Origin: Actinomycetes bacterium
Lineage (GTDB): Bacteria; Auribacterota; JAJCYG01
DNA length: 64,000 bases
Reading direction: 5' to 3'
Assembly (NCBI GenBank): GCA_029263055.1
Contig: JAJCYG010000036.1
Coordinates: forward strand, 6,708-70,707
The position numbers and the translations under genes are program-made. Of this stretch, positions 1,283 through 47,581 are shown in pieces (positions within the stretch are counted from its first letter, which is position 1; every line of letters begins with the position of its first letter). Under the pieces are notes generated by a model. It ran no database searches, was not told where the DNA came from, and saw only the letters and a list, made by a program, of their open reading frames with translations.

Positions 1283-2364
1283 TAATAAATTCCTCCCTCA
1301 ACTTTAAGTGTTAAATTATTTAAAGGCTGTGGATCTGCAATCCCATCCCATAAGCAACCTAATGCGATTGATTCTTCATTTATGGCATTTCGAATGCCTG
1401 TATCTCGTTCTAAAACATTTGGAAGAAAAACACTTTCATCTAATCGGTGAAATAAAACCTGGCCACGTTGATTGGGTTCAATAGGAGTCTTCAATCTTTC
1501 ATTTAAAGGAATGGATTTATCTAAGGAAATTAATTCAATTTGTAGTCGTTCTGAATGTGAATAATAGATGATTTGAGACGGCTCTTCTTTTAAGTCTTTT
1601 AAGCCGTGACAAACGCCAAAGAGACTGTTTCCGTAACCTGGAATAAGCACGGCATTAGGAAAGGAGTTCTTTATTTTTTTTATGGCCTCTTTTGAAATGG
1701 ACATGCCTCCAATATAAATACCTTTAATTTTTTCTCGGATGGTCTTATTTAATAGACTACTAATTGATTCTAAGACAATTGGAGTTGTAAATAAGTTCTC
1801 TATAAGTTGAGTGTTTAAAATCCTTATGGCTTGGCTTGTTACGTGATTCATGTATCGGTTTCGGGCAATAGACTTTGGGGCAAGCTTTCGATACCAGCGT
1901 GGGTCAAAGTCGATTGAAAAGGGGTCTGCACCACTTAATTTTTGTGCAATAGCATGTGAAGCTTTACCAATAACATGTGGCCCTCCGGGACCGATCCAGA
2001 GCCATCTTCCTTTGCCCGAAAACCCAAGATGTTGGGCTACTTGAGTAAAGGGATGAACGAAAATCTCTTCAAATTCATCTTTAAAGTAAGCGGTTGTTTT
2101 TGGAGTTCCTATTGTGCCACCTGTTTCGCAGAAAATTAGAGGCCGTTTTTCTTTTAAAAACTTTATAGGAATAAATTCTTCTATGGGTCTATTTGTTAAA
2201 TCGTCTAATTCCATTGACCCAAGTTTATATAGATCTTTTTTTTGTTGAATTTGATCGCGAACAGAAAAACCAAGTTTTTTCTCTTTTTTAAGCCAATAAG
2301 CACTCCCATGATTAGGATCAAAATGTAAATTGATAATAGTTTGAAGTCTAGAGAGAGATGTCAT
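1282..2364 (-). CDS. Small adenylate-forming enzyme (PaaK / coenzyme F390 synthetase / LuxE acyl-protein-synthetase-like)
   Basis: 360 aa. FCETGGTIGTPK matches the (S/T)SGTTGxPK phosphate-binding loop of small ANL-type adenylating enzymes. There are no TM segments. It overlaps the upstream MMPL gene by 17 nt. Confidence 0.5.
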   Translation of the reverse strand: MTSLSRLQTIINLHFDPNHGSAYWLKKEKKLGFSVRDQIQQKKDLYKLGSMELDDLTNRPIEEFIPIKFLKEKRPLIFCETGGTIGTPKTTAYFKDEFEEIFVHPFTQVAQHLGFSGKGRWLWIGPGGPHVIGKASHAIAQKLSGADPFSIDFDPRWYRKLAPKSIARNRYMNHVTSQAIRILNTQLIENLFTTPIVLESISSLLNKTIREKIKGIYIGGMSISKEAIKKIKNSFPNAVLIPGYGNSLFGVCHGLKDLKEEPSQIIYYSHSERLQIELISLDKSIPLNERLKTPIEPNQRGQVLFHRLDESVFLPNVLERDTGIRNAINEESIALGCLWDGIADPQPLNNLTLKVEGGIY

Positions 2365-4558
2365 TGTTTGGCTCCATTTTTGGTAAGAATTGAACTAAAG
2401 CGGGTAACATAAAAAGATCACATAAATAAGCGCTAAAAATAGCAATCATAGAGAGAATGCTGAATTGAATAATTGGAATAAAGTTGGATATTAAAAGAGA
2501 TGAAAACCCTAGACAAACAACAATAGATGTTAATCCAATAGCAGGGCCAATTTCTTTGACTGCTTCAGCCATGTTCTTTTTATTTTTATAGGTATAGAGA
2601 AGAAAAATGGTGTCATCCACAATAACGCCAATAAGAACAGCAGCGACAAAGACATTGATGTTGTTTATAGAGATGTTTAGTAAGGACATGATTCCGGCTG
2701 TAATGATAATGGGAAAAATGTTAGCGATCATAGAGATGAAGGCAATTTTAATTGATTTAAAAAGGATTAAAAAGCAGAGCGAAATAAGAAGAATTAAGAG
2801 AATAAACGTTTTGACCTGATTAGCTAAAAGTTGGGTTTGAGATTCAAGGATCAGAGGAATAATGCCTGTTATAGAGATTCTTACGTTTTCAGTTGAGATA
2901 TCTCTCCAAATGGTCTCAATGTTTTTCTTTATTTCAGGAAACCGTTTATCAGAGAAGTTTTTGAATCTTAGAGTCATTCTTGATGTCTCTTCTGACTCTG
3001 TTAAGAATATTGTTTTTGCTTGAGGAGAGCGTTGTTCGATTTTTCTCAAGGCTTTAATGAGTAAAGGATGGTTGTTATGGTTTTTATTAAGGCCTCCTCG
3101 ATGCATTTTTTTGAGTGCCTCATCCAGTGGATCAAAGATAGAGTTAATCTTAGTTAGTTCAGGGATTGTTTGCAGTCTTTGTTCAAAGGAGTATATTTTA
3201 TTTAATGAGTCTTTATTTGTTAAAGGTTGTTTGTCTAAAGATTGGAGAAGCAATTGAACCGTCAAAGTGCCTGTTAAGTTTTTTTCGGTTGATTGATAGG
3301 ACTTAATCAAAGGAGAATCTTGTTTAAAAAAGAATAATGCATCAGAATTAATTTTAAGTTTATTTAATTGAAAACCTAAGAAAAGTGTTATTAAACAAAA
3401 AAGAACAAGAATTAAGAGTGCTACTGGCTTTGACTGTTTTTGAAATCCCTTAATTTTAAATGTGAACGCTTGGATTGAGTGAAAATTTCCGTTGAGTAGA
3501 TGGTATAGGCTTGGAATAAAGAAATAGGCTGAGACAAAAGCTAAAAAAATTCCTATAGGAGCAATCCATCCAATGAGTGAAATAGCTTGCTGAGGAGAGA
3601 ATAAAAAAGCGGTTGTTCCCAGAGCAGTGGTAAAGGAAGCCATTAAACCTGGTGTAAAGGTCTCTTTATAAGCTTTTTTAAATGGGTGTGAAGCATGTTT
3701 ATTTAAGGCTATTTTATAAAAAAGGTGTATGGATAGGGTTGTCACAATACAGAACAAAAGAGGAAAAATTATTAACGAAGCTAAGGTAATAGAGACTTTA
3801 AATAGAGGGAATAAACAGAGTGTTGTTAAAACACTAAAGAGAGTTCCCATAGAGACGCAAAAGGCTATTTTAAAGCTTTTGAAGTAGAACATAAGTATTA
3901 GAAAAGAGAGAATGAGAAGCAATGGCAATATTTTAGTCAGGTCTTTTTTTAGAGAAGTCGCTAAAAATTTTGAAAAATAAATGGGCCCAGTTGTGTCAAA
4001 AGAGATATTGAGTTGTTTAAAGCGAAAGTTTAGGTCTTCATAAATGGTTTGATTTTTATTTTTTGAAGACGATTGAGCAAAAACAATAAGTGCTGATGTT
4101 TGTTTGTCCTTGGAGAGTACTAATTGGGACCATCCCTGGTGTTGGGATAGAGTTTGGATAAAGGTGTTTAGCTTAGAAAGGTGAATCGAAGGATTGGTAT
4201 AAAGTTCATTATAATTAAGGTTGTTTTCTTCTAAAAAGAGACTAATAGGATCAATAAAGTCTTCTACATTGGGATCTTTGGTCAATAGTTCTAAGAATTC
4301 AACATAATCTTTTAATAAAGAGTCATTGAGAATAGCTTGAGTATTAAAAGAAAATTGAAGGTATTCATCGTTTTTAAAGTGATGTGTGAGTTTTTGATAG
4401 CTTTGGTATAGAGGATCTTCTTTGTTTATCCAATCGTGAATATTGTTCTCTAGATGTGCTTTTGGTAATAAGAATAAAGTCCCTGTCATTAAGAGAAGAA
4501 CAATACCTGTTATAAATGGAGAGCGCTTTAAAATAAAGTCAGGAAGTCTCTTCTTCAT
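2348..4558 (-). CDS. MMPL/RND-superfamily exporter (two 6-TM bundles separated by large extracytoplasmic loops)
   Basis: 736 aa. There is an N-terminal TM helix, a roughly 190-aa soluble loop, a cluster of about 5 TM helices, a second roughly 200-aa loop and a C-terminal cluster of about 5 TM helices. This is the topology of MMPL / predicted RND-superfamily lipid exporters. The start overlaps the stop of the reductase gene by 1 nt. Confidence 0.6.
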   Translation of the reverse strand: MKKRLPDFILKRSPFITGIVLLLMTGTLFLLPKAHLENNIHDWINKEDPLYQSYQKLTHHFKNDEYLQFSFNTQAILNDSLLKDYVEFLELLTKDPNVEDFIDPISLFLEENNLNYNELYTNPSIHLSKLNTFIQTLSQHQGWSQLVLSKDKQTSALIVFAQSSSKNKNQTIYEDLNFRFKQLNISFDTTGPIYFSKFLATSLKKDLTKILPLLLILSFLILMFYFKSFKIAFCVSMGTLFSVLTTLCLFPLFKVSITLASLIIFPLLFCIVTTLSIHLFYKIALNKHASHPFKKAYKETFTPGLMASFTTALGTTAFLFSPQQAISLIGWIAPIGIFLAFVSAYFFIPSLYHLLNGNFHSIQAFTFKIKGFQKQSKPVALLILVLFCLITLFLGFQLNKLKINSDALFFFKQDSPLIKSYQSTEKNLTGTLTVQLLLQSLDKQPLTNKDSLNKIYSFEQRLQTIPELTKINSIFDPLDEALKKMHRGGLNKNHNNHPLLIKALRKIEQRSPQAKTIFLTESEETSRMTLRFKNFSDKRFPEIKKNIETIWRDISTENVRISITGIIPLILESQTQLLANQVKTFILLILLISLCFLILFKSIKIAFISMIANIFPIIITAGIMSLLNISINNINVFVAAVLIGVIVDDTIFLLYTYKNKKNMAEAVKEIGPAIGLTSIVVCLGFSSLLISNFIPIIQFSILSMIAIFSAYLCDLFMLPALVQFLPKMEPNNDISL

Positions 4559-6138
4559 TATTCCTCTACGAGCTCCTCTATGAGTCGATCGTCTAGTTGC
4601 TTGAAGTATTCACTAAAGATAAACCCCAGTTTTAAGCCTTGTGACTGGTCTCCTAAAATTTTGAGTTTTCCTTGAAAAAAGGCTTCTCTAGGATTGAGTT
4701 TGCCATGGACCATTTCTTGAAAAACTGATTCTTCAATCTCATATCCAAAATCAAAAGAAGTTTCATTTTTTATTTCTAATTTTTTAAGGTGCCCTAAATT
4801 AAATTCCAAAAGTTCTTCAGTTGTGGAATCTCCTTTAATTCGAAAGAGGACCTTTGATTGAATAAAGTCAGCTCTCTTAAGTAGGCTCGTACCAAAATCT
4901 TGATTGGCAAAGTGGTGTAAGTATTTTTTAGAGTCATTAATATTGAGAGAGTCTAGAGCTGATGAGTGAAGTGAGAAACGTTTTTTGTTTTGTTTAAAAA
5001 AGTTAAGTTCATTTAAATAACTAAGTGCAATTGTATCGAGATTTGTCTTTTGTTCAAAAGGTCTAAGTATTGATTGTTCTTGATTCAGAAGCGTTAATGA
5101 AGGAGAAGAAAAAAGGTATGCTTCGTAAGCTTTTGTTGCGCGTTTAAATCTTTGCTCAAGAGGAGATCTTATTTTATTAGCGAGCTCTTCTTTAGATGTT
5201 AGGGCCACTCCGGAGAGGTTAAGAACTCGACAAAAAGCATCTCGAATAGCACTGAGTTTAAACTCTTTAGAAGCAATAACTGAAATGGTTTTTGATTTTA
5301 TCTCTTTTTGTTCTATTTGATTTAAAACAACATGGGCTAACGTTTGAATAGGAATCAAATTGAGAGAAATGGCTGGGTTCATCACAACCCTTAGAGGGAT
5401 ATGTACTTTATTGTCTGTTAGTTGGATCTCGTATTGGGAGTGAAGTTTTTGAGTTTTTTTTAAGTCGTGTAAACAGCATCGTTTAATAAAGTGGAGGGCT
5501 TTTAAAAAGGTATATAGGGTGGTTGCTGATTGGGTTTCTCCGATTACTGTTCCACCGATAACAATGCTAGGACGGTAGATAATTATGGGTTCAGTTGCCT
5601 TTTTTGTTTTTTCTTTTAAGAAGAGTTCTGCCTTAAATTTAGATTTTTCATATGCATTTTTAAAAGATTGTCCTATGTCGAGATCTTTTGAAGTAAAAGG
5701 CCCCGAATGGTTTCCCGCGACAAAGGCAGTGCTGATATGATGAAACGCTTTGCTTTTTAAATATTGATGGAGTTCATAAGCGTGACAAACACTCAAAAAA
5801 TTATTTTGGTGGAGCTCATTGGCGTAAATATCGTCAAAACAGGTCATGCCTGCAGAGTGAATAAAGTGATCAATATTATTTTTGAGATAATCTAGATGAT
5901 TCTGCTTGAGTCCAAATCGAGGAAGGGAGATGTCCCCCTCATACACAAATAGTTGCTCTTTTATTTGACTCGATGTGAGCTGTGTAAAAGGCTGCAGCAG
6001 CTGATGTAGACGTTCTTTTAATTTGCCTTCTTTTTTTCGGACGAGAGTGTGAACTCGATATCCTTTATTAAGAAGGCCTGCTAAAAGATGTTTGCCGATA
6101 TAGCCTGTAGCCCCAGTTAAAAATATGTTTTTTACCAT
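4558..6138 (-). CDS. NAD(P)-dependent thioester/fatty-acyl reductase (NAD_binding_4 type) fused to a C-terminal SCP2 lipid-carrier domain
   Basis: The N-terminal IFLTGATGYIGKHLL Rossmann motif and YRPSIVIGG are as in male-sterility/thioester-reductase domains. The C-terminal HGKLNPREAFFQGKLKILGDQSQGLKLGFIF matches the SCP2 sterol-carrier signature. 526 aa. Confidence 0.6.
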   Translation of the reverse strand: MVKNIFLTGATGYIGKHLLAGLLNKGYRVHTLVRKKEGKLKERLHQLLQPFTQLTSSQIKEQLFVYEGDISLPRFGLKQNHLDYLKNNIDHFIHSAGMTCFDDIYANELHQNNFLSVCHAYELHQYLKSKAFHHISTAFVAGNHSGPFTSKDLDIGQSFKNAYEKSKFKAELFLKEKTKKATEPIIIYRPSIVIGGTVIGETQSATTLYTFLKALHFIKRCCLHDLKKTQKLHSQYEIQLTDNKVHIPLRVVMNPAISLNLIPIQTLAHVVLNQIEQKEIKSKTISVIASKEFKLSAIRDAFCRVLNLSGVALTSKEELANKIRSPLEQRFKRATKAYEAYLFSSPSLTLLNQEQSILRPFEQKTNLDTIALSYLNELNFFKQNKKRFSLHSSALDSLNINDSKKYLHHFANQDFGTSLLKRADFIQSKVLFRIKGDSTTEELLEFNLGHLKKLEIKNETSFDFGYEIEESVFQEMVHGKLNPREAFFQGKLKILGDQSQGLKLGFIFSEYFKQLDDRLIEELVEE

Positions 6139-6257
6139 GAATGAAAGAACCTATTATTTATGTTTTGGTTATGTTAAAGGATGGACTTAAATCTTAGATT
6201 AAAAGAGGATTAACTTTTTTTAATAATAGAGGCTGTTGTTATTTTTTTTCTTGTTCT

Positions 6258-6542: not shown

Positions 6543-6585
6543 TTTACCTCAATTAATTTGACGTAAAAAAGAAGTCGATATTCCT

Positions 6586-7506: not shown

Positions 7507-7562
7507 AATAACGAGGCAACATGTGGCAATAATAAAGAATGGCTTTGGCCTATGAGACTTTT

Positions 7563-9664: not shown

Positions 9665-11107
9665 TTATTCATCTTTGGCTGGAAAGGTTAGGTTAAAGAC
9701 GGTTCCTTTGCCTTCTGTGCTCTCTACAGAAATTGTTCCGTTATGAGAGAGCACAATGGATTGAACTAACGAAAGCCCTAGGCCATAGCCTTTGCTGTTT
9801 CTCGATTTGTCTGTCCGGTAGAAGCGATTAAAAAGGTGTGGGAGATCTGTTGTAGAGATTCCTTTGCCATTGTCTTTGATTGTCACAGAGATCGTGCCAT
9901 TATTTCGTTTAGCTTCAACTTCAATGAGGTCTGCCTTAGCATGCTTGGCAGCATTAGATGTGAGGTTATAAAGAGCCTGGTTTAGAAGTCTATAATTACC
10001 TTGGATAGTTAATGGGATTTGTCTGTCTGTTTTTGTTTCTACTTTTGTGGATTGGTTTTCTGCCTCTAAAAGTATCTGAGTCTGTTCTTGAACTTCTTCA
10101 ATTAATTGAGTGAGATTAAATGTTTCTGTCTCCTGAGGTTTGTTTTTTCTGGCATCAAGCTTAGCAAGCAGGAGTAGGTTTTTAATAATTGCGATGAGGT
10201 GGTTGACTTCGTTTAGACTTTCTGTGAGAAGTAATTGGTATTCACTCGACGTTCTTTCTCGGGTTAGTGCCACCTCTATAGATCCTTTTAAGGCTGTTAA
10301 TGGTGTATTTAGTTCATGTGACGCAGCAGCGCTAAACTGTTTTTCTCGTTCAAAGGAGGTCTCTAGTCTAAATAGCATTTGTTTTAAGGACTCAGTTAGT
10401 TTTTGAATTTCAATAGGCCCTTTTTGAGGGAGGTCAATTGATTGAAAATTCTCTGCTTCTTTAATTTTTTCTGCTTCTTGTACGATTTTGTCTAGAGGCT
10501 TTAGTCCTTGTTTAGAAATAAAGTAAATAATGATAGAGGACAAAATTGAAATAATAGGTATCCAGACCAGTAAAGTGGCTAAAAATCGTTTTGTGGCCCA
10601 ATAAACATTTTTTAATGATTTTGCAATGATGATGTGATAAATCTGTCCCTCTTTGTCTCGGTAAAGATAATGGAGTTGTATAAGAGGTGTCTCTTTATTG
10701 ATGGCATCTGCTTTAAATGAAGTCGTATTGACTTTTAAGCCAGTATTAAAAATAGGCATCCTCTTGTTTCGTGCATTGGGAGATCTGAAAAGTTTTGTGT
10801 GGCCTTGCCTTTGAATCCAAACCAGTTCATTGATTCCTTCAAGATCTTCTTCTAGGTCGACTTCTTCTTCGGTATGACCTAGTTCTTTAGCTAGCTTAAA
10901 CTCATCATTGTCTTCATCAATAATTCGAGTGAGTAGTTTGACTTGATTGGTTAGGTTCTTTTTTACTTCTAAGTCTGTTACTTTTTTATAAGAATAAAAA
11001 AGAACAGCAACAGTCGTAATCATGGCACCGACAAGAATCAATGAGTTGAATAAGGTTAAACGTGTTTTAAAAGAGCTAAACAGATTCAGTTTTTTCTTTA
11101 AGGACAT
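9665..11107 (-). CDS. Two-component sensor histidine kinase (PmrB/BasS-like genomic position)
   Basis: H-box SHELNTPLTAL. HATPase_c block GYGLGLSLVQSIVLSHNGTISVESTEGKGTVFNLTFP. Two TM helices flank a periplasmic domain. I chose the start at the internal MSLKKK (ATG 11107), which leaves a 28-nt gap after the regulator gene. The track ORF extends to 11212. Confidence 0.8.
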   Translation of the reverse strand: MSLKKKLNLFSSFKTRLTLFNSLILVGAMITTVAVLFYSYKKVTDLEVKKNLTNQVKLLTRIIDEDNDEFKLAKELGHTEEEVDLEEDLEGINELVWIQRQGHTKLFRSPNARNKRMPIFNTGLKVNTTSFKADAINKETPLIQLHYLYRDKEGQIYHIIIAKSLKNVYWATKRFLATLLVWIPIISILSSIIIYFISKQGLKPLDKIVQEAEKIKEAENFQSIDLPQKGPIEIQKLTESLKQMLFRLETSFEREKQFSAAASHELNTPLTALKGSIEVALTRERTSSEYQLLLTESLNEVNHLIAIIKNLLLLAKLDARKNKPQETETFNLTQLIEEVQEQTQILLEAENQSTKVETKTDRQIPLTIQGNYRLLNQALYNLTSNAAKHAKADLIEVEAKRNNGTISVTIKDNGKGISTTDLPHLFNRFYRTDKSRNSKGYGLGLSLVQSIVLSHNGTISVESTEGKGTVFNLTFPAKDE

Positions 11108-11759
11108 AGCCTCTACCTCTAAGTGTGTGAATAAATTTGTTTGGACTCTCTTGACTGATTTTATTGCGTAACCGATTAATGTAGACATCAATAATATTAG
11201 TCTCTGTATCAAAGTTTAATCCCCAAACATTTTCAGCAATCATGGTTCGAGTGAGAACTATGTTGGGATTGCGCATGAAATATTCTAAAAGAGTGTATTC
11301 TTTTGTTGTTAGTTCTATAAGCTTTTCATTACATTTTGCTTGGTGTTTCACAGTATCGAGTTCTATATTTTGGATTTGAATAAGGTGGGATGTTATTGAT
11401 GTTCCTCTGCGTAATAGGGCGCGAATACGTGCCAAAAGCTCGGCAAAGGAAAAGGGCTTGGTTAAGTAATCGTCTGCCCCTGCATTAAGACCTTTGATCT
11501 TGTCTTCAACTACATCCTTAGCTGTGAGCATTAGGATTGGAGTTGAAATATTGTTTCCTCGAATCTCTTGGCAGACTTGAAAGCCATCTTTAATAGGCAA
11601 AAGGATATCTAGGAGAATGAGGTCATATGGAGCGTTAATCGCGTAATCAATCCCATCTTGGCCGTTATTAACTACATCAACGATATAGCTCTCCTCTTCA
11701 AGTCCTTTTTTGATGAAACTAGAGACTTTGGGCTGATCTTCTATCACAAGAATTTTCAT
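11076..11759 (-). CDS. OmpR/PhoB-family response regulator (PmrA/BasR-like genomic position)
   Basis: MKILVIEDQPKV...DLILLDILLP...LMLTAKD...GADDYLTKPF is a receiver domain. The C-terminus is winged-helix (LTTKEYTLLEYFMRNPN...RLRNKI). I chose the start at MKILVIED (ATG 11759) by family convention. The track ORF starts at 11792. Confidence 0.85.
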   Translation of the reverse strand: MKILVIEDQPKVSSFIKKGLEEESYIVDVVNNGQDGIDYAINAPYDLILLDILLPIKDGFQVCQEIRGNNISTPILMLTAKDVVEDKIKGLNAGADDYLTKPFSFAELLARIRALLRRGTSITSHLIQIQNIELDTVKHQAKCNEKLIELTTKEYTLLEYFMRNPNIVLTRTMIAENVWGLNFDTETNIIDVYINRLRNKISQESPNKFIHTLRGRGYVLKEKTESV

Positions 11760-11796
11760 AGCGTGGTAGTTTAGCATACAATAGGGACTCATCCTT

Positions 11797-12087: not shown

Positions 12088-13899
12088 ATGAAAAACCAGT
12101 CAAACACTGTCGACCGTCGTAAGTTTAATCGAACAGAAATAGCTCCTAAAGAGAGTTATTCTTTTCAGGCTTATTCTCTTAAACGAAACATGCCAGAACA
12201 GTTAATGGGTGAATTACTCGATTTTTCTCTTCAAGGTGCTGGCATAAAACTCCTTTCAGTTCAAAACCCTTTAAATAAAGGGGATTTTCTTTATGGAATC
12301 CAATTTGGCCGTCCTGATGGCGAAGAGGTTTCCAAAGCTGTGGGTGTGATTCGCTCAACCGACACTGTACTTGATGACAGTGGCCAACCTTTTTGGAGAG
12401 TTGGCGTCGAGCTTATCAATATCCCTGGCGAGCAAAAGAATGCTGTCTCCAATTCAGAATTTCCAGTTCGTCCTCAACGTTATGAAATTGACGCTGAATG
12501 CGAAGAGCTCACCGAAGTTGCTTTTCAAATAGATAACGAATCTCTTTTCGGAAAACTACACAATGTTTCTAAATTTGGTTTAGCGGTTAAGATTGGCCGA
12601 GAAGCGCCACTAAAATTAAACGTAGGTCGTTATTTAGAGGGTGTTGAAGTTAAAGTTGATGGCGAAATGGTTTTTACAGGGTTTTTAGTGATCCGTAATT
12701 TGCGCCAAACTCAAGACTTTACTCTGATCGGTTGTGAAGTAACAGGAAGTTTAATTGATGTGGATCAAATTTTAGAAAATCAGAAAATAGTTCATTACAA
12801 ATCAAGAGCCAAAGAAAAATGTCTTTCCTTAAGTGAAATCCAACGTATTCCAAATGATTTTAAGGCTCTCGTCGCTGATTTTCGTTATTGCTTAGATAAA
12901 TTTCATAACGAACTAGAGCGTCCCTACGCCAATGATTCTAAAGATAAAGTGGTCCGAGAAGTTTATCCTTTATTTAAATCTCTTGTAGATGAAGTTTATT
13001 CAAAGTTCCGTCGTTGCGTTGAAAATATTTCAGCAGAAGAACATGAATCGTACAAAAACTATTTTCAAAAACAATTGCACCCTCTTTTATTAACCGCCCC
13101 TTTTATTAAACACACCTATCAAAAGCCACTTGGTTATGCGGGTGACTATGACATGGTGCTTAAGGTGTTAGACAAAGAGATCGAAGGGTCGACCTTTCTT
13201 TCAAAACTGCTCAACATGTATTGTTGGAATATGAACGCGGCTGAAGCCCATCGAAATCGAATCACTTATTTAGTTGATTTGCTTCAAGAGGTTGTCAGTA
13301 CTAAAGAACATCGCGAGATCTTAGTGATTGGATCTGGGCCTGCTCGGGAAATTAAACTCTTTTTAAATAAGGCTCCAGCAGATGTTGATTGTACGTTTAC
13401 GCTGCTTGATTTTGATTCAAGAGCGCTCACTCATAGCCAAGAAGAATTGCTTTCTGAGGTGTTGAAAAATCGCTCAAACGTAAAAATCAAATTTATGAAC
13501 AAAAGTGTGCGCCAAATCATTAAGTCCAAGAGCTGTGATACTAATACTGGTAAGTATGATCTGGTTTACTGCGCGGGGCTATTTGATTATCTTTCAGATC
13601 CATTCTGCGTTAAGATGCTGGAAATAATGGGATTACATCTAAAACCTACAGGGCGTATGATTGCCACAAACGTGACAGAGCTCAATTATTACCGATACTT
13701 CATGGAATTCATGGGAGAGTGGTATTTGACACACCGGTCTCTCGATGCTATGTTGAACTTAGCGACTGGTTTACAGAAAAAACATGGGATGTTCGCAGAC
13801 TGTGAAGTGGATGCCACAGGGGTTAATGTATTCTTAAATGTTCAAAAAAGCAAAGAAAACACAGGCACAGCAGACTCCAGCCTTACAAAGTGCTTATAA
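12088..13899 (+). CDS. PilZ-like domain(s) fused to a class I SAM-dependent methyltransferase
   Basis: N-terminal RRKFNRTEI ... LLDFSLQGAGIK (RxxxR plus DxSxxG = PilZ c-di-GMP-binding signature). A second, degenerate copy follows (VRPQRYEI ... LHNVSKFGLAV). The C-terminal half has EILVIGSGPAREI (motif I) and LVYCAGLFDYLSDP, typical of SAM methyltransferases. Confidence 0.55.
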   Translation: MKNQSNTVDRRKFNRTEIAPKESYSFQAYSLKRNMPEQLMGELLDFSLQGAGIKLLSVQNPLNKGDFLYGIQFGRPDGEEVSKAVGVIRSTDTVLDDSGQPFWRVGVELINIPGEQKNAVSNSEFPVRPQRYEIDAECEELTEVAFQIDNESLFGKLHNVSKFGLAVKIGREAPLKLNVGRYLEGVEVKVDGEMVFTGFLVIRNLRQTQDFTLIGCEVTGSLIDVDQILENQKIVHYKSRAKEKCLSLSEIQRIPNDFKALVADFRYCLDKFHNELERPYANDSKDKVVREVYPLFKSLVDEVYSKFRRCVENISAEEHESYKNYFQKQLHPLLLTAPFIKHTYQKPLGYAGDYDMVLKVLDKEIEGSTFLSKLLNMYCWNMNAAEAHRNRITYLVDLLQEVVSTKEHREILVIGSGPAREIKLFLNKAPADVDCTFTLLDFDSRALTHSQEELLSEVLKNRSNVKIKFMNKSVRQIIKSKSCDTNTGKYDLVYCAGLFDYLSDPFCVKMLEIMGLHLKPTGRMIATNVTELNYYRYFMEFMGEWYLTHRSLDAMLNLATGLQKKHGMFADCEVDATGVNVFLNVQKSKENTGTADSSLTKCL

Positions 13900-16399
13900 A
13901 TCCTATATAGTCCAATCTAATATCAAACGTCTCCGGGTGGGTTGCTTGCTCGGTGGTACTTTAGTGCCTCTTGGTTCTCTTTTCGATTACTTCATTTATC
14001 CAGAGCTTTTTAAATCGTTTCTTCTTGTTAGGTTATTCTTTGGCCTACTCTACGGTTTGATCTACCTTGTTTCATTTACAGAATTCACTAGAAAGCATTC
14101 TGTTGGGATGATGCTTTTCTTAACAGAGTCCATTGCCATTCCTATTGTGATGATGATCTGTTTTACCGGTGGGTATCTCTCGCCTTATTATGCGGGCCTT
14201 AATCTTATTATTTTAGGCGTAGGGGTATTGTTTACTTGGATGATCTCTGAAGCTGTGATTGTTTGTCTCTTGATCTATCTAACTTATTTAATTCCTGTTC
14301 TATTATTAGATACAATTACCGACTACCACACTTTTTTTAATAACAATTATTTTATTTCCTTTACGATTATCATTGCTGTAGTGAGTAACTACTTTGCTTC
14401 AAAATTGCGCGAAAGTGATTTTGTGAGTCGTCACAAACTAGGGGCAGCGGTCAAGCAGTTGAATGAACTTGATAAAGCAAAAACCAGTTTTTTCTCAGGT
14501 ATCAGCCACGAATTAAGAACGCCTTTAACTTTGATCTTAGCTCCTATTGAAAATTTATTAAAACAATCTAAATTAAACAAAGAAACCAGAGGTCGTTTAG
14601 AAATATGCCATAGCAATGCGCTCCGTCTTTTAAAATTAATTAACAATTTATTGGATGTGGTTCGCATTAACACAGGGCGAATGGAGTTGCGCTATTCTAA
14701 TAAAGACGTGACAAAATTGTTAAAACAAGTTGTGGTCAATGTTTCATCAATGGCTGAGAAGAAAAATATTAAAATAGAGTTTGTCTCTAAAGGAAATGGG
14801 TTCACCTTTTTTTGGGATGAAGATCAGCTGGAAAAAGTGATTGTGAATTTAATTTATAACTCTTTAAAATTTACCCCTGAACAAGGAACCATTAAGGTGG
14901 GGTGTAAAGATAAAGGGGATGAGGTTGTTATTTCTATTAAAGATAGCGGAATTGGTATTCCAGAAGATCAAGTGGGAAGAGTATTTGACACCTTTTATCA
15001 GGTCGACTCAGGGAGCAAGCGAAGTTATGAGGGGAGTGGAATGGGACTTTCTTTATGCCGTCAAATCGTGGAATTGCATGGAGGCAAGATTTGGGCTGAA
15101 AGCAAACTAGGCGAAGGAACAAAAATGATTTTCACCCTTCCTAAGAAATTGGAGGTAAATGCTTCGAAGATAAAGACTGAAATCAAGGACGAAGATTGGA
15201 CCAAGCAAGTTAGTAAAGAAGCTATTTATGAAAAAGGTGAAGTCGGTATTTTAGATAGTGAAGATAAAAAGAGGGCTGCAGAGCCTGATCAAACAAATCA
15301 TGACGGATCAGGAACCGTTTTAGTGGTTGAAGATAATCATGATATGCGTGAGTTTGTCTGTCTTGAAATGGCCAATACATACACTGTTTTGAGTGCTATG
15401 AATGGGCAAGAAGGTTTAGAAATTGCAGAGAAAGAAAGTCCTGATTTGATTATTAGCGATGTGATGATGCCGGTGATGGATGGTTATGAGTTGTGCCGTC
15501 ATTTAAAAGCAGGTGAAAAGACCAAACAAATCCCAGTGCTCATGCTCACAGCTAAAACAGAACTCGACATGCGCCTCTCAGGGTATGAACAGGGTGCTGA
15601 TGATTATGTGGCTAAGCCATTTAATTTAGAAGAGCTTATGGCTAAAGCTAAAGCTTTAATCCAAGGGCGTCGACTCGAGCGTGAGATGGAAGTTTACCGT
15701 CGCCTTGCCTCTGTTGGAGAGTTGGCAGCAGGTGTGGCCCATGAAATTAATAACGCGCTCAATGTGGCTGTATTAGCAAACTCTCGATTGAAAAAATTGG
15801 TCACTAATCAAGCTGGAGGTGAGCAGTTACAGGTTGAAACGTTTTTAAAGGAATCAGGCAAAGGAATAGACCTCTTAAACGAAGGGATTGGTCGTGCACA
15901 TGGTGTGGTAAAAAGTCTCTTAACTTTTTCACAAAAAAATTCAGAAGGATTTAAAAAACAAAATATTCAAGAAGGTTTGAATTCTACTTTAACCATGCTT
16001 GAGAGTGATCTCAAAATAAAAGCAAAAGTAGTTAAAGTTTATTCTAAAGAAAATGAAGCTTATTGTGATTTAAATCAGCTGAATCAAGTCTTTCTCAATA
16101 TTTTGAAAAACTCAATTGAAGCGATTACTGAAAATGGGATAATTACTCTTAAGACGTGGGTGGATGAAGAAAATTATTTTGTGTCGATTAAAGACAATGG
16201 ACATGGTATTGCCAAAGAAGAGGTTGGCCGAATTTTTGATCCTTTTTTTACAACAAAGCCAGTGGGTCAGGGAACAGGATTAGGTTTGAGTGTGAGCTAC
16301 AATATTATGCAGGAGCATGGTGGTTCACTTATTTGCAAAAGCGAACCCGACCAAGGGGCCGAGTTCATTCTTTCGCTTCCAATCTCGTTAACTAAATAA
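13838..16399 (+). CDS. Hybrid sensor kinase with unusual HK-REC-HK architecture (6-7 TM sensor, HisKA/HATPase, receiver, second HisKA-like/HATPase)
   Basis: Six to seven N-terminal TM helices. First H-box SHELRTPLTLI plus GSGMGLSLCRQIVELHGGKIW. Receiver VLVVEDNHDMREF...LIISDVMMPVMDG...DDYVAKPF. Second H-box AAGVAHEINNALNV plus GTGLGLSVSYNIMQEHGGSL. The start is uncertain: the track ORF overlaps the upstream gene by 62 nt. Confidence 0.8.
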   Translation: MFKKAKKTQAQQTPALQSAYKSYIVQSNIKRLRVGCLLGGTLVPLGSLFDYFIYPELFKSFLLVRLFFGLLYGLIYLVSFTEFTRKHSVGMMLFLTESIAIPIVMMICFTGGYLSPYYAGLNLIILGVGVLFTWMISEAVIVCLLIYLTYLIPVLLLDTITDYHTFFNNNYFISFTIIIAVVSNYFASKLRESDFVSRHKLGAAVKQLNELDKAKTSFFSGISHELRTPLTLILAPIENLLKQSKLNKETRGRLEICHSNALRLLKLINNLLDVVRINTGRMELRYSNKDVTKLLKQVVVNVSSMAEKKNIKIEFVSKGNGFTFFWDEDQLEKVIVNLIYNSLKFTPEQGTIKVGCKDKGDEVVISIKDSGIGIPEDQVGRVFDTFYQVDSGSKRSYEGSGMGLSLCRQIVELHGGKIWAESKLGEGTKMIFTLPKKLEVNASKIKTEIKDEDWTKQVSKEAIYEKGEVGILDSEDKKRAAEPDQTNHDGSGTVLVVEDNHDMREFVCLEMANTYTVLSAMNGQEGLEIAEKESPDLIISDVMMPVMDGYELCRHLKAGEKTKQIPVLMLTAKTELDMRLSGYEQGADDYVAKPFNLEELMAKAKALIQGRRLEREMEVYRRLASVGELAAGVAHEINNALNVAVLANSRLKKLVTNQAGGEQLQVETFLKESGKGIDLLNEGIGRAHGVVKSLLTFSQKNSEGFKKQNIQEGLNSTLTMLESDLKIKAKVVKVYSKENEAYCDLNQLNQVFLNILKNSIEAITENGIITLKTWVDEENYFVSIKDNGHGIAKEEVGRIFDPFFTTKPVGQGTGLGLSVSYNIMQEHGGSLICKSEPDQGAEFILSLPISLTK

Positions 16400-16408: not shown

Positions 16409-16822
16409 TTATTCTTTTTTCCAAACTAAACCAACAACAGCACCGAGTAATAGATACTCGATAAAACTACCCGCACCCCAGTAGATCGCTAGCATTTTAG
16501 GCATAGGTAAAACAGCATACCAACCTAATGCCATCATTGGAGCAAGCATCATTCCTATCAGTGCTCCGAATCGTAATCCTTGGCTTAAGCCACTTTTGCC
16601 CTCTTCATAGCCTTTGGAATAAATACAGACAAAAAATGGTGCAAAGATTAAGTAGCCAAGCCACATCATCCACATCATGCTTTCCATCTCTGCTTTAGAG
16701 CGCCAAAGAGCTGCGGTCTCTTCGTAGATGCCGCTTAAGCAAAGACCATGGATAACAAACTCAACAGCAAACATTGCAATAAAAACAGCAATGCTCGCGA
16801 GCAGACAGTATTTATGTTTCAT
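16409..16822 (-). CDS. Small integral membrane protein (4 TM), unknown function
   Basis: 137 aa, hydrophobic, Met/Trp-rich. Confidence 0.5.
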   Translation of the reverse strand: MKHKYCLLASIAVFIAMFAVEFVIHGLCLSGIYEETAALWRSKAEMESMMWMMWLGYLIFAPFFVCIYSKGYEEGKSGLSQGLRFGALIGMMLAPMMALGWYAVLPMPKMLAIYWGAGSFIEYLLLGAVVGLVWKKE

Positions 16823-22144: not shown

Positions 22145-22693
22145 ATGATTTTGTCAGATCAAACCCTAAAGCAGTACCTTGAAGAAGGCAAACTTAAGAT
22201 CGATCCTATTGAAGATAATTCTGTTCAGCCTGCTTCTGTGGATTGCACATTAGGTTCGCATTTTTTAGTGATCGATGAAAACAGCATGGGTTTGCTTACA
22301 ATGGATGATGAAATCAAGTACCGCACAATTGAAGCTGATAGTATTACCTTGCCACCCCATTCTTTTATTTTAGCTACAACCCGAGAAGAGGTTGAACTGC
22401 CTGATGATTTAACAGCATTTGTAGAAGGGCGCAGTTCTATTGGTCGCATGGGATTGTTTATTCAAAACGCGGGTTGGGTTGACCCTGGTTTTAAAGGGCG
22501 TATTACTTTAGAACTTTATAATGCAAATTCTCTTCCTATTAAGCTTGAAGCTGGTCGTCGTATTTGCCAGCTTGTTTTTTGTAAAATGAGTAGCCGTGCT
22601 TCTAAACCTTATCAAGGTAAGTATCAAGGTCAAACAACCACTGTTGGAAGCCGTGTTTTTAAAGATGTGGATAAGGGTGCTTCTGCGGTTTAA
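22145..22693 (+). CDS. dcd: dCTP deaminase
   Basis: 182 aa. MILSDQTLKQYLEEGKLKIDP...VDCTLG...GRSSIGRMGL...DPGFKGRITLELYN is the dCTP deaminase/dUTPase-fold signature. Confidence 0.85.
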   Translation: MILSDQTLKQYLEEGKLKIDPIEDNSVQPASVDCTLGSHFLVIDENSMGLLTMDDEIKYRTIEADSITLPPHSFILATTREEVELPDDLTAFVEGRSSIGRMGLFIQNAGWVDPGFKGRITLELYNANSLPIKLEAGRRICQLVFCKMSSRASKPYQGKYQGQTTTVGSRVFKDVDKGASAV

Positions 22694-24888
22694 GCTGCTT
22701 CTTCTTTGGCTGAAGCTAAGGGGAGTGTGAAGTAAAAAATAGTGCCTTTACCCATTTTGCTTTCTGCCCAAATTTTTCCACCATGGCGAACAATAATGCG
22801 TTGCACAATAGCCAGACCTGCTCCGGTTCCTTTAAAGTTTTGCTTGTCGTGGAGTCGTTGAAAAACAGTGAATAGTTTGTTGATTTCTTTCATGTTAAAA
22901 CCAACCCCATTATCTTGAATGTAAAAGGTTAGTTTTCCTTTCTTTTCAATGGCGCCAATTTCGATTATAGATAGTTCTTGGTTCTTAGTGAATTTAATGG
23001 CATTGCCCATTAGATTGCTTATGACTTGACGAATCATGACTTCATCTCCTAAAACATGTGGAAGAGGAGAAGCTATTTTTAAAAGACAGACTCTATCTGG
23101 TTCTAAAAGTTTAAAGTCTTCAAAGACTTCTTTGCACATTGACTCAATATTAAAATCATTCGTAAGAATTTCTTTTCGACTTAATTGGGAATAGACCATG
23201 AGGTCTTCAATAAGGTCTCCCATTTGCTGAGTGTGATCTTGGATGTGGTTTAGATAGCTTTTGCCTTCTTTATCGAGCTTGTCGTGATGTGTCTCTGATA
23301 AAAGTTTGCTAAAACCACCAATTAACGTTAGAGGAGTTCTTAATTCATGAGAAATGGAATAAGAAAAAGCTTCTAATTCTTGAACCAAATCCTTTAGTTC
23401 TTCTGTTCGCTGTTCAACTCTTTTTTCTAGATCAAAGTTAAGGTGTTGGATTTTCTGTTCGGCTTTCTTCTGTTCTGTGATGTCGAGAATAAAACAAGCG
23501 CACTCATTTTGTGATTCTGGCAAAAGAGCTGCTCCAATCAAGATAGGCACTCTTGAGCCATCCTTGTAGAAGTATTCTTTTTCATAAGGAGTGGCTGTCC
23601 CTTTCATCTTAAGTTCTTGGACAGCAAACTCATCTTTTGGCTGCCATTCTTCGGGTGTGAGTTTTGTCCATTTACAAGGCATATCTTTTTCTGTAAGGCC
23701 GAGCATTTGTAGAAAAGCGTCATTGCCTTCGATTATGTTTCCATTAAAGTTGGCAATTGTGATTCCAATTATTTTTGAATTAAAGAGAAGGTTCATTCGT
23801 TCTTCAATTTTTTTGCGTGCCTCTTGTTCTTTTTTGATCTCACTTAAATCTCGAACTAAACAAATAATCCCTAAAAATTCATTTTTTTTGTCCTTCATTG
23901 AGTTGGCCGAAATACTGGCATAAATCTCTTTACCTTTATCTGTTGTGATATCTATTTCAGCTTGTTTGACGGGTGTGTCATGGTCGATTAGATTATTCCA
24001 CTGGTTTTGAGAAATGATTTGAGGTGCGATGCAATGAATCGATTTTCCGATGAGATCTTTTTCTTTTATTTCAAATAGAGTGCATGCTGTTTCATTAACA
24101 ACTCGAATGGCTCCATCTCTATCTAAAACTAAGAGAGCGTCACCTAAGTGATCCATTACCTCATTGATGCTGTAAGTAGAGGGGATATCTTGTAAATGAA
24201 AACGTCTTACAGTAAAGGCTGCAAGGAGTGCAAAGATAGAAATAGGAAGAAATCCCACAGGATAAATTGGGATGCCAAATTTAACTAAGTAATCAACAGC
24301 ACCTAGTAGAGCAATGAGAAAGGCAATTAAAAACAGAGTGACTCGATGATGGTGGCGAGAGTGGGTAGGGGTTATTTTGTAAGCATTCCAATAATGCTTA
24401 ATGCTTAAAACCATGAGTGTGAAAAAGAAAGCCAAAAAAGGAAGGCTGAGCAATCCGTATTGTGGGTAATAACCCCAGTTAAAGAGTTGGACATGTGTAA
24501 TAAATTGATTTGTAAATAATGCTGCTCCAGAAAATCCTGTGGCCATTAACATAATGCTCCAAAACCGAATTTTATAATGGGAGCTTAATTGTAAAATTGA
24601 GAGCGCAAATAAATAGATACTAACAGGAAGAAAGGGGACACCTATATAGGCAAGTTTAGACCAAGAAAGAGCCACTTCAGGAAGTTCTGCACAATACATC
24701 ATTGAAAAACAAAAGAGCCAAATAGATAGGGTTGAAGTGAGAAAAAAGAATTTGAGACTGACTTGAGAGGCTTTTTCTCGCACTAAAACAACGGAGCCAA
24801 GTGCTGTGAGAAGGACTGCGGTCAAAAACAGTGGGACCGCATGTGGGTTAAACGTATAATTTATAAAATGAAAAAACTCTCTCCACAT
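22690..24888 (-). CDS. Sensor histidine kinase with a 7-TM sensor region and PAS domains
   Basis: About 7 N-terminal TM helices and two PAS-like segments. H-box SHELRTPLTLIGGF. HATPase_c GTGAGLAIVQRIIVRHGGKIWAESKMGKGTIFYFTLP. Convergent with dcd, overlapping by 4 nt. Confidence 0.8.
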   Translation of the reverse strand: MWREFFHFINYTFNPHAVPLFLTAVLLTALGSVVLVREKASQVSLKFFFLTSTLSIWLFCFSMMYCAELPEVALSWSKLAYIGVPFLPVSIYLFALSILQLSSHYKIRFWSIMLMATGFSGAALFTNQFITHVQLFNWGYYPQYGLLSLPFLAFFFTLMVLSIKHYWNAYKITPTHSRHHHRVTLFLIAFLIALLGAVDYLVKFGIPIYPVGFLPISIFALLAAFTVRRFHLQDIPSTYSINEVMDHLGDALLVLDRDGAIRVVNETACTLFEIKEKDLIGKSIHCIAPQIISQNQWNNLIDHDTPVKQAEIDITTDKGKEIYASISANSMKDKKNEFLGIICLVRDLSEIKKEQEARKKIEERMNLLFNSKIIGITIANFNGNIIEGNDAFLQMLGLTEKDMPCKWTKLTPEEWQPKDEFAVQELKMKGTATPYEKEYFYKDGSRVPILIGAALLPESQNECACFILDITEQKKAEQKIQHLNFDLEKRVEQRTEELKDLVQELEAFSYSISHELRTPLTLIGGFSKLLSETHHDKLDKEGKSYLNHIQDHTQQMGDLIEDLMVYSQLSRKEILTNDFNIESMCKEVFEDFKLLEPDRVCLLKIASPLPHVLGDEVMIRQVISNLMGNAIKFTKNQELSIIEIGAIEKKGKLTFYIQDNGVGFNMKEINKLFTVFQRLHDKQNFKGTGAGLAIVQRIIVRHGGKIWAESKMGKGTIFYFTLPLASAKEEAA

Positions 24889-46374: not shown

Positions 46375-47291
46375 GTTTTAAAGAAGATGTGGTTACAGGA
46401 TTAGAAAAAGAGCGAAAAGAATTATCGCCCAAATATTTCTATGATCAAAAAGGGTCGCAGCTGTTTGACCAGATTTGCGATTTAGAAGAGTATTATGTCA
46501 CTCGAACTGAATTGGAGATTATGGAGCAGAGTCTTCCTGAGATTGTTGATTTTTTAGGGGAAGAGAGCTTGTTGATTGAGTATGGTAGCGGAAGTAGTGT
46601 AAAAACACGGATGCTGCTCGATGAACTGAAAAAACCTGCTGCTTATATCCCGGTTGATATTTCTCATAAACATTTACAGCAGACAGCTGAAACATTGTCT
46701 CAGAGCTATCCTGATTTAGAGGTGAACCCGGTTGCAGCTGATTTTACCAAGCCATTTTCATTGCCTGAATGTTCTCAAGCCCACGCCAAAAAAGTGATCT
46801 ACTTTCCTGGGTCAACGATAGGCAATTTTAGCCCGACTCAAGCAGAAACAATTCTAAAAGAGATGGCTCATTTGTGTGAGCCTGAAGGAGATCTTTTGAT
46901 CGGCGTTGACTTAAAAAAAGACCGGTCTATTTTAGAATCTGCCTACAATGATTCAAAAGGGGTGACTGAAGCATTTAATCTAAATCTTTTAGAGCGGATC
47001 AATAATGAATTAGGGGCTAACTTTCAATTAGATCAATTTCAGCATCAAGCCATTTATAATGAAAAACAGTGCCGCATTGAAATGCACTTAGTGAGCCAAA
47101 AAGAGCAGGAAGTCTTGATTGAAGAGACACTGATTCGATTTGAACAAAATGAAACTATTTGTACGGAGCATTCATACAAATACTCCATTGAAGAGTTTGA
47201 GCAACTAGCGCAAAAAGCATCCTTTCAATTAAAGAAAGTCTGGACCGATGCCAACCAGCTTTTTAGCCTCCAATATTTGAGCCTAACATGA
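46371..47291 (+). CDS. egtD: L-histidine N-alpha-methyltransferase EgtD
   Basis: KYFYDQKGSQLFDQICDLEEYYVTRTELEIM...LIEYGSGSSVKTRMLLDEL...YIPVDIS is the EgtD signature. The ATG overlaps the egtB stop (ATGA). Confidence 0.85.
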   Translation: MSFKEDVVTGLEKERKELSPKYFYDQKGSQLFDQICDLEEYYVTRTELEIMEQSLPEIVDFLGEESLLIEYGSGSSVKTRMLLDELKKPAAYIPVDISHKHLQQTAETLSQSYPDLEVNPVAADFTKPFSLPECSQAHAKKVIYFPGSTIGNFSPTQAETILKEMAHLCEPEGDLLIGVDLKKDRSILESAYNDSKGVTEAFNLNLLERINNELGANFQLDQFQHQAIYNEKQCRIEMHLVSQKEQEVLIEETLIRFEQNETICTEHSYKYSIEEFEQLAQKASFQLKKVWTDANQLFSLQYLSLT

Positions 47292-47410: not shown

Positions 47411-47581
47411 TCTGACAAATTTGTACATCCTCTTGCAGAAATGTTCCTAACCTAAAATTCCAACATAGATTGTAAGTCACTCAATATAAGCTAATTATAA
47501 CCTTATCTATTTAAACTCTTTTCCTCTCAAATGGCTCTTTTTGCGGTATGGAAGTTGCATATTAATGGGGTAGGGGGAAAT

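Follow-up and report, generated by a model that had tools for sequence, protein, structure and literature searches.

Two described signaling systems come closest to the locus analyzed here. In Ralstonia and Cupriavidus, PhcB is the synthase of the quorum-sensing signal and PhcS is the receptor histidine kinase (HK) for 3-hydroxymyristic acid methyl ester (3-OH-MAME) or 3-hydroxypalmitic acid methyl ester (3-OH-PAME); to our knowledge, Phc-type quorum sensing has so far been studied only in these two genera. The Ralstonia genes stand in the order phcB-phcS-phcR (PMC8578825). In pathogenic Leptospira, the 832-residue hybrid kinase LvrA carries a PAS domain followed by dimerization and histidine phosphotransfer (DHp, residues 206–270), catalytic and ATP-binding (CA, 325–427), receiver (REC, 478–583), DHp (604–670), and CA (720–823) domains, a layout published in 2018 with phospho-sites at H218, D524, and H616 (PMC5863495). 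LvrB, which LvrA activates, is a receiver–histidine kinase (Rec-HK), and one sentence of the LvrB paper names PhcR as a protein of the same type (PMC13269768).

We analyzed a stretch of 64,000 nucleotides (the window) from contig JAJCYG010000036.1 of assembly GCA_029263055.1, an Actinomycetes bacterium placed by GTDB in Auribacterota. The gene at 13838..16399 of the window encodes a sensor kinase with two complete transmitter modules flanking a receiver, and the gene overlapping its start encodes a methyltransferase that resembles PhcB. The HK-REC-HK architecture is neither rare nor undescribed, and the window kinase is a non-orthologous example of an already published layout. What is new is the combination of a PilZ-PhcB-like synthase, a double kinase with a MASE8 sensor, and a PhcR-like Rec-HK, conserved well beyond Burkholderiaceae. 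In the interpretation that we moderately favor, the kinase is the receptor of a Phc-type cassette and houses a two-tier kinase cascade in one polypeptide. Our literature search returned no report of the cassette beyond Burkholderiaceae, of a link between Phc and Lvr, or of ligands for MASE8; most subscription journals lay outside this search, so absence is unproven. A first-pass annotation made from the sequence alone had singled out the kinase but missed its most informative feature, the overlapping PhcB-like gene and the PhcR-like partner, which tie it to Phc quorum sensing.

Domain organization of the double kinase

The kinase gene is one unbroken open reading frame (ORF) with an ATG start in the ORF listing, and Pfam, applied to the full-length protein and to four fragments of it, recovered the order kinase, receiver, kinase that the first-pass annotation had proposed (Table 1). 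Both H-boxes named there, each with its ATPase domain, and the conserved acidic and Lys positions of the receiver are indeed present. The first H-box, SHELRTPL, spans residues 223–230 (nucleotides 14504–14527) with phospho-acceptor H224 (codon 14507–14509) and is followed by HATPase_c at 327–437. The Response_reg match (residues 494–604) contains E498/D499, D541, T571, and K593, and the second H-box, AHEINNAL (residues 634–641, nucleotides 15737–15760), precedes HATPase_c at 744–849. The second HisKA-like stretch (residues 627–702) scored 22.2 bits by itself, slightly below the 26.9-bit cut-off. Each kinase module has its H-box His and intact N, G1, F, and G2 boxes; the G2 box of module 2, for which the annotation had raised the prospect of a defect, reads GTGLGLS at residues 812–818. 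An E-x-x-T/N phosphatase motif lies right behind the His in both DHp domains (HELRT and HEINN). Pfam gave no match to a histidine phosphotransfer (HPt) domain after the receiver, where a DHp-CA pair stands instead.

The two kinases, HK1 and HK2, can be aligned with each other in the CA domain only (34% identity over 114 residues) and have different DHp types, which rules out a recent tandem duplication of one kinase. The second CA domain (CA2) is of the PhcS/ZraS/AtoS-like type (ZraS 9jfj, E = 9e-29). Kinase residues 15–33 align with the N-terminus of PhcS, and the ATG at 13838 is therefore supported as the true start. The guanine–cytosine content around the locus is ~34–41%.

Table 1. Features of the synthase, kinase, and partner genes, with window positions and with residue numbers of the respective protein
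Feature	Position	Strand	Basis
PilZ-fused PhcB-family S-adenosylmethionine (SAM) methyltransferase, 603 residues, putative signal synthase	12088..13899	+	Pfam, BLASTP
Canonical PilZ, residues 9–120, RxxxR (RRKFNR) and DxSxxG (DFSLQG)	12112..12447	+	Pfam, alignment
Second PilZ-like region, residues ~130–235, RPxRY and NxSxxG	12475..12792	+	Alignment with plain PhcB-like proteins
PhcB-homologous region, residues 177–582	12616..13833	+	BLASTP to Ralstonia PhcB residues 44–456
Sensor kinase MASE8-DHp-CA-REC-DHp-CA, 853 residues	13838..16399	+	ORF, Pfam, NCBIfam LvrA model, AlphaFold2
MASE8 sensor with six transmembrane (TM) helices, residues 33–190	13934..14407	+	Six helices, precomputed PF20968, BLASTP to PhcS sensor
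DHp1, HisKA residues 214–280, H-box SHELRTPL	14477..14677	+	Pfam E = 2e-16
CA1, ATP-binding, residues 327–437, N/G1/F/G2 boxes intact	14816..15148	+	HATPase_c E = 7e-33
Flexible charged tether from kinase 1 to receiver, residues 438–492	15149..15313	+	Predicted local distance difference test (pLDDT) 42–63
Receiver, residues 493–596, phospho-acceptor D541 (codon 15458–15460)	15314..15625	+	Response_reg E = 1.5e-28
αS helix continuous with DHp2, residues 597–698, H635 (codon 15740–15742)	15626..15931	+	Predicted helix 597–659; HisKA-like
CA2, ATP-binding, residues 744–849, N/G1/F/G2 boxes intact	16067..16384	+	HATPase_c E = 1.4e-24
Unlinked PhcR/LvrB-type Rec-HK, 396 residues, likely downstream partner	47531..48721	+	Homology, Pfam REC and weak HATPase_c

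By homology and by its precomputed Pfam assignment, the sensor is a six-TM MASE8 domain, the sensor domain of PhcS, and not the 7-TM region that the first-pass annotation had described. Hydropathy gives six hydrophobic segments, and by the positive-inside rule the Lys/Arg-rich N-terminus and the similarly charged stretch behind the last segment indicate an N-in/C-in topology. Six membrane helices also appear, with pLDDT >90 in the sensor region, in an AlphaFold2 model for which 73 homologs were used (mean pLDDT 83.4). Neither HisKA_7TM (PF16927), 7TMR-DISM, nor any other 7TM family matched the kinase in Pfam at E ≤ 1, and no PAS domain was matched in it. MASE8 (PF20968) is in the precomputed Pfam list for the exact protein and for 73 of its 120 best relatives, the others of which have GAF, HisKA_7TM, or different N-termini. 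In BLASTP, residues 5–176 of Ralstonia PhcS match residues 19–186 of the window kinase (31% identity over 172 residues, E = 3e-12). The intramembrane motif YYAGLNL (residues 117–123) is identical in the two proteins, their (F/L)DYxxYP motifs are similar and collinear, and R65, Y117, and G120 are invariant across the kinase family.

We searched 5.8 billion proteins for homologs, clustering at 90% identity. The HK-REC-HK core recurs in at least 120 protein clusters with 33–69% identity (weakest listed match, E ~ 1e-144), and >100 homologs are collinear, of the same length, and encoded on independent contigs from different phyla. Homologs of the same domain order, which the first-pass annotation had suggested seeking, are plentiful, and its view that a second kinase behind a receiver is rare does not hold. 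Among the matches listed, the closest named relatives are Nitrospirota (~40% identity). An alignment of the 120 best relatives shows H224, D541, and H635 in every sequence, with D499, D541, and K593 invariant and T571 replaced at most by Ser. The CA1 positions N337/N341, D369/G371/G373, and G399/G401/G403 are kept in 120/120, and the CA2 positions N754/N758, D786/G788/G790, and G814/G816 in 119–120 of the 120. Because these catalytic positions are near-invariant, both kinases are under selection as enzymes.

The best NCBIfam model for the protein is hybrid_HK_LvrA (NF047465), which aligns residues 202–848 to model positions 189–817 of 819 in a single stretch. The score of 346.8 bits (E = 2.3e-103) is far under the family cut-off of 1200 bits, and the window kinase is therefore not an LvrA ortholog. 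The two proteins share the core order DHp-CA-REC-DHp-CA, with H224, D541, and H635 in the places of LvrA H218, D524, and H616, and just as lvrB follows lvrA, a gene for a Rec-HK of ~380–400 residues follows the kinase gene in related loci. They differ at the input, since LvrA is cytoplasmic with a PAS sensor whereas the window kinase has the six-TM MASE8, and in their gene surroundings, as the cited papers mention no methyltransferase associated with lvrAB whereas the window kinase has one.

The first half of the core resembles classical hybrid kinases. HK1 and REC together give single-stretch alignments with TorS (204–626), CckA (217–608), and HrmK (199–601), and the same holds for ArcB, BarA, TorS, and RcsC. 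As a first step, His-to-Asp transfer within the molecule is expected. Behind the receiver those proteins have an HPt domain, whereas the window kinase has a complete DHp-CA, so its next step can consume fresh ATP, as in a cascade with gain.

The second half of the core, residues ~493–853 (REC-αS-DHp-CA), is built like an LvrB-type Rec-controlled histidine kinase. It matches LvrB in sequence (8vc9, E = 5e-22), and LvrB is its top fold match in the PDB (E = 6e-20, ~395 aligned columns). As in LvrB (8vc9, 9qqw, 9qr2; PMC13269768), the predicted helix from REC α5 to the DHp is continuous and the spacer is quantized in heptads, as reported for Rec-HKs. The two differ in that LvrB is a separate protein, whereas the corresponding half of the window kinase is fused behind its presumed activating kinase; their identity is ~24%. 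Cryo-EM of LvrB documents a heptad preference for Rec-HK connectors and indicates that, once the REC is phosphorylated, the αS helices zip up as a coiled coil and the catalytic domain is set free (PMC13269768). The intramolecular gate that the first-pass annotation had suggested is broadly right as an idea, and LvrB provides a structural precedent for it. Kinase 2, whose catalytic residues are intact and invariant, may be an autokinase switched by the REC.

The predicted structure and the spacer lengths of the family bear on how the modules are coupled. In the AlphaFold2 model, a single predicted helix (163–242) runs from TM6 into DHp1 through H224, another (597–659) runs from REC α5 into DHp2 through H635, and the tether (residues 438–492) is disordered. 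Across the family, the spacer from the TM region to H224 measures 34, 41, 48, or 55 residues, in steps of 7. The D541-to-H635 spacer measures 94 (27 sequences), 115 (90 sequences), 119 (two sequences), or 122 residues (one sequence), in steps of 21 and 7, with two dominant length classes 21 residues apart. The distance from H224 to D541 varies continuously between 307 and 364. The spacers are quantized where rigid coupling is expected and continuous where a tether is expected.

A probable Phc-type gene cassette in several phyla

We used the authentic Ralstonia insidiosa phcBSRQ locus (L018) as the reference; it encodes PhcB (465 residues), PhcS (442 residues, MASE8-HisKA-HATPase), PhcR (368 residues, REC-HisKA-HATPase), and PhcQ (340 residues). 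The window kinase shares with PhcS a homologous sensor, a core homologous to its HK2, and a gene position right behind a PhcB-family gene, and the phospho-His is similarly far from the N-terminus (H230 in PhcS and H224 in the window kinase). The PhcS core matches HK2 with E = 3e-30 and HK1 with E = 4e-13, the latter in the CA domain only, and it is closer to HK2 than to HK1 in 118 of the 120 best relatives (136 vs 61 bits). Unlike the window kinase, the 442-residue PhcS (K19621) has a single transmitter directly behind MASE8; the window kinase inserts a HisKA kinase and a receiver (residues ~200–600) between the sensor and the PhcS-like core. A Paraburkholderia plasmid locus that served as an intermediate in the comparison was verified as true PhcS family, and 120/120 PhcS-family relatives carry MASE8. 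A simple origin by fusion of PhcS to PhcR is rejected, as the internal receiver has no PhcR or PhcQ match at E ≤ 1e-3 and it is HK2, not HK1, that resembles the PhcS core. The protein is better described as PhcS-like in its sensor and core, which a hybrid-type HK1-REC unit separates.

The gene upstream encodes a class I methyltransferase in which Pfam detects PilZ (E = 7e-8) and, at residues 412–523, Methyltransf_12. It matches R. insidiosa PhcB (31% identity over 427 residues, E = 1.7e-56) and a Paraburkholderia PhcB-like protein (E = 7e-50), and PhcB family motifs (LHPLLL, KPLGYAGDY, AHRNR, GxGPAxEI, VYCAGLFDYLSD, EWYLxxR, and TGVNVF) are shared with PhcB. A SAM-binding motif is present as well. 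Homologs of ~470–490 residues match residues ~190–603 of the methyltransferase with E ~ 1e-60 and bear the JGI name [quoted passage not shown], that is, PhcB. The product of the methyltransferase is probably the signal for the MASE8 kinase. The c-di-GMP (cyclic diguanylate) motifs of the PilZ domain, RxxxR and DxSxxG, are conserved in close PilZ-bearing relatives, and the fusion would put signal production under the control of c-di-GMP.

A degenerate second PilZ-like region also occupies the N-terminus of plain PhcB-like proteins, and a match recorded as "PilZ (faint)" exists for the plain 487-residue PhcB-like protein of L015. The N-termini of the plain PhcB-family proteins at L011 (6935–8341), L012 (7001–8449), and L018 (4594–5991) are apparently PilZ-like as well, without the c-di-GMP motifs. 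Authentic Ralstonia PhcB is among these proteins, and a PilZ-like fold goes unmentioned in the papers that we found.

The 3′ end of the synthase gene shares 62 nucleotides (13838..13899) with the kinase gene. The overlap is likewise 62 nucleotides in L006, the locus with a 69%-identical kinase, and measures 4–8 nucleotides in distant loci and ~100 nucleotides in L014. A sigma-70-like site (13726..13754, + strand; TTGACA-17-TATGTT with an extended −10 TG) falls within the 3′-terminal part of the synthase gene, ~85 nucleotides upstream of the kinase start, and the kinase might be expressed from it independently of the synthase. The site is a consensus-level match, as were all results of our promoter and terminator scan, which we did not use as evidence.

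We compared the locus with others reached through the kinase, namely, L006 (69% ortholog), L008, L009 and L010 (Nitrospiria), L014 (Myxococcales), and L015, and with two reached through plain PhcB-like genes, L012 (Prosthecobacter) and L013. The kinase-derived loci contain a PhcB-like gene, with or without PilZ, then the MASE8 double kinase, and directly behind it a Rec-HK, and L012 and L013 contain the same trio. The PhcB-like gene adjoins a MASE8-type kinase in eight of eight loci from several phyla, a small sample of which two were selected through the synthase. The Rec-HK gene lies directly downstream of the kinase in all nine non-window loci, whatever the sensor. L016, which holds a GAF-type relative, has the Rec-HK and lacks the methyltransferase; L017, with a HisKA_7TM-type relative, has just a divergent PilZ-methyltransferase. 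The pair of HK-REC-HK kinase and Rec-HK goes with any sensor, and the PhcB-like gene goes with MASE8.

The three components of the cassette are homologous to those of the phcBSRQ operon. In related loci they also stand in its order of synthase, MASE8 receptor kinase, and REC-HK, and in the window the first two are adjacent in this order. There are differences from the operon too: the window synthase has a canonical PilZ domain at its N-terminus, the receptor has an extra kinase-receiver stage, the PhcR-like gene of the window is displaced by 31 kb and encodes a degenerate ATP site, and the organisms are not Burkholderiaceae. Neither a PhcQ-type REC-only gene nor a PhcA-type LysR regulator was seen, and the NCBIfam models for PhcB, PhcS, PhcR, and PhcQ gave no match, with generic models alone matching. 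The stand-alone Rec-HKs match PhcR over their full length (E = 1e-19 to 8e-37), and their REC domain is of the PhcQ/PhcR type (35–40% identity).

Directly behind the window kinase, the next gene lies on the opposite strand (16409..16822). The likely partner encoded 31 kb away shares 45% full-length identity with the Rec-HK right behind the orthologous kinase in L006, and it matches Ralstonia PhcR over its full length (E = 1e-19), with a REC that is 40% identical to that of PhcQ. Alignment shows that it keeps REC D72 and H175 (AHYVNNGL). Its CA domain has lost the Mg-ATP N-box Asn, the G1 Asp, and the G2 glycines, as has that of the L006 copy, whereas the L008 and L009 copies are canonical. With these residues missing, the protein is probably not an autokinase. 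Instead of being a kinase, it may serve in His phosphotransfer or as a phosphatase.

Several of the related loci carry further genes. L006 has a second MASE8-HK-REC-HK paralog (5501–8041; 846 residues, 51% identical to the window kinase) directly upstream of its synthase gene, compared with the single copy in the window. At L009 (11990–16571, Nitrospiria), the cassette is followed by genes for a HisKA-only protein (493 residues), an NtrC-type sigma-54 activator, and a REC-HD-GYP protein, which are candidate outputs to transcription and c-di-GMP turnover; equivalents were not found in the window, where tblastn with HTH_17-REC, NtrC-type, and REC-HD-GYP neighbors as queries for a terminal regulator returned generic REC similarity only. 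In L012 (5575–6861, Prosthecobacter), the PhcB-like gene is directly preceded by one for a FadL/Toluene_X outer-membrane channel, and genes for a ketoacyl synthase, FabA, a FabH-like protein, and an acyl carrier protein synthase flank the cassette in L015 (1–2747 and 8884–9468); both the channel and the lipid genes fit a signal derived from fatty acids. Beside the GAF-type relative in L016 (1–2206, Nitrospiraceae) are genes for a PilZ-acyl-CoA dehydrogenase (596 residues) and a PilZ-TENA/heme-oxygenase-like protein, and PilZ-enzyme fusions seem to recur beside this kinase family.

Proposed signal flow and its alternatives

We infer the ligand, the gating by c-di-GMP, and the steps and direction in which phosphoryl groups move as follows. 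The MASE8 domain would sense a hydrophobic, membrane-borne signal that the overlapping PhcB-family methyltransferase probably makes, and a rigid, heptad-phased helix would relay this event to kinase 1, which would be autophosphorylated on H224. Kinase 1 would phosphorylate the tethered D541, as classical hybrid kinases do, and phospho-D541 would zip αS to a coiled coil and release CA2 by the mechanism described for LvrB. Kinase 2, the PhcS-like core, would then autophosphorylate H635 with its own ATP and hand the phosphoryl group on to a PhcR/PhcQ-type receiver; the Rec-HK at 47531..48721 is the likeliest recipient. At the other end of the circuit, the PilZ domain of the synthase would tie signal production to c-di-GMP. 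We assign the internal receiver to HK1 and the external receiver to HK2 because HK1 and REC match classical hybrid kinases, HK2 resembles PhcS, and the external REC resembles those of PhcQ and PhcR. Gain or gating would be possible because each tier spends its own ATP, unlike an HPt relay.

Several points weigh against this cascade. The direct Pfam match to MASE8 is weak (14.5 bits vs a threshold of 26.2, E = 0.04, residues 48–198). Identity to PhcB, PhcS, and PhcR is just 24–31%, and the signal chemistry may differ. The AlphaFold2 model is a monomer, and the proposed mechanism needs a dimer. The partner Rec-HK lies 31 kb away and has lost its ATP residues, so the last step would differ from that of the canonical members, and the window yielded no terminal DNA-binding regulator. 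The flow through this kinase family is argued from homology, and LvrA is the sole studied protein with the layout. There, killing the internal receiver by D524A did not stop LvrA from phosphorylating and activating LvrB, and the authors concluded that H218 of kinase 1 is the direct donor to LvrB (PMC5863495). This result favors a branched rather than a strictly linear flow.

The alternative that survives best keeps the kinase mechanism and changes the ligand: the methyltransferase would modify an intracellular lipid, metabolite, or protein, and MASE8 would monitor the membrane or envelope rather than cell density. An identity to PhcB of only ~31%, neighbors that vary from locus to locus (the fatty-acid synthesis genes of L015, the FadL-type channel of L012), a PilZ fusion suggestive of intracellular control, and a signal that is as yet putative are all compatible with such a role. 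We nevertheless consider it rather unlikely, as the PhcB family motifs extend throughout the catalytic region, in 8/8 loci the synthase gene adjoins or overlaps that of the receptor in the phcB-phcS order, and the sensor is homologous to that of the 3-OH-MAME/PAME receptor.

A somewhat less likely possibility is that the kinase has two outputs, with H224 phosphorylating the external Rec-HK directly and the internal REC-HK2 forming a parallel output or a feedback or phosphatase arm. The LvrA D524A variant speaks for this arrangement, as it still transfers to LvrB and stimulates the LvrB autokinase, with the transfer assigned to H218 (PMC5863495), and either DHp domain could be a phosphatase, given the E-x-x-T/N motif in both. 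On the other hand, PhcS is the known upstream kinase of receivers of the PhcQ/PhcR type, to which the external REC belongs, and the PhcS core resembles HK2 and not HK1. HK1 and the internal REC are collinear with classical hybrids, in which the tethered receiver is the substrate, and the quantized spacer between REC and H635 shows the receiver to be mechanically coupled to kinase 2.

A disguised phosphorelay appears improbable. Here, DHp2 would be HPt-like and take the phosphoryl group from D541 in a His-Asp-His-Asp series, leaving CA2 as a regulatory or phosphatase cofactor site. DHp2 does sit behind the receiver where ArcB, BarA, and TorS have their HPt domain, and the window Rec-HK, which keeps its His and has lost its ATP site, shows that use as a His-only module does occur here. 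The ATP-binding residues of CA2 are, however, invariant in 119–120 of the 120 relatives, which would be unexpected if autophosphorylation were dispensable, and the solved homolog LvrB is a true Rec-activated autokinase (PMC13269768). Finally, an assembly or sequencing fusion of two kinase genes, a frameshift, or a decaying second module, a concern of the first-pass annotation for which we found nothing in favor, is ruled out for practical purposes by the unbroken ORF, the intact catalytic motifs, the conserved and length-quantized REC-DHp2 junction, and the >100 full-length collinear homologs on independent contigs from several phyla.

Other genes of the window and wider implications

Elsewhere in the window, a separate sensor kinase (22690..24888, − strand), unrelated to the double kinase, has a real HisKA_7TM domain along with PAS domains, HisKA, and HATPase_c, and it is the actual 7TM kinase of this stretch. 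Divergent from and upstream of the cassette are genes for an OmpR-type regulator (11076..11792) and a HAMP sensor kinase (together 9665..11792, − strand), a pair also found near the cassette in L006 (48–65% identity). The HAMP kinase ORF, with a TTG at 11212, overlaps the regulator gene by 137 nucleotides; its homolog alignment begins near 11077, and the true start is therefore probably an internal Met (MSLKKK...). The Rec-HK gene is immediately preceded, at 45094..47291 (+ strand), by a gene pair of the ergothioneine biosynthesis type that encodes an EgtB-like protein (DinB_2 and FGE-sulfatase) and an EgtD-like protein (Methyltransf_33, E = 1.5e-112); the EgtD-like protein is a histidine-specific methyltransferase. 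An MMPL-family transporter gene stands beside one for a fatty acyl-CoA reductase-like protein (NAD_binding_4 with a C-terminal SCP2) at 2348..6138 (− strand). These lipid genes are ~6–10 kb from the cassette, and a link to a fatty-acid-derived signal is speculative. No rRNA or other Rfam match was found in the window.

A wider proposal, which we put forward tentatively and hold to be possible rather than probable, is that Phc-type quorum sensing is ancient and widespread (Verrucomicrobiota, Nitrospirota, Myxococcota, and others), mostly with an LvrA-type double-kinase receptor that adds an ATP-driven stage for amplification or gating and, in some lineages including the present one, with autoinducer synthesis placed under c-di-GMP control through a fused PilZ domain. 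If this is true, the Lvr system of Leptospira and the Phc system of Ralstonia would be two branches of one signaling design. The cassette suggests Ralstonia-type methyl-ester quorum sensing in many environmental phyla and supplies a candidate ligand class for the orphan MASE8 domain. A PilZ-gated autoinducer synthase, if confirmed, would wire c-di-GMP directly into cell–cell signaling. The window kinase is also a natural fusion in which the Rec-controlled mechanism of LvrB could be studied together with its activating kinase, and the ATP invested in its second tier could give gain, thresholding, or an AND-gate beyond the classical His-Asp-His-Asp relay.

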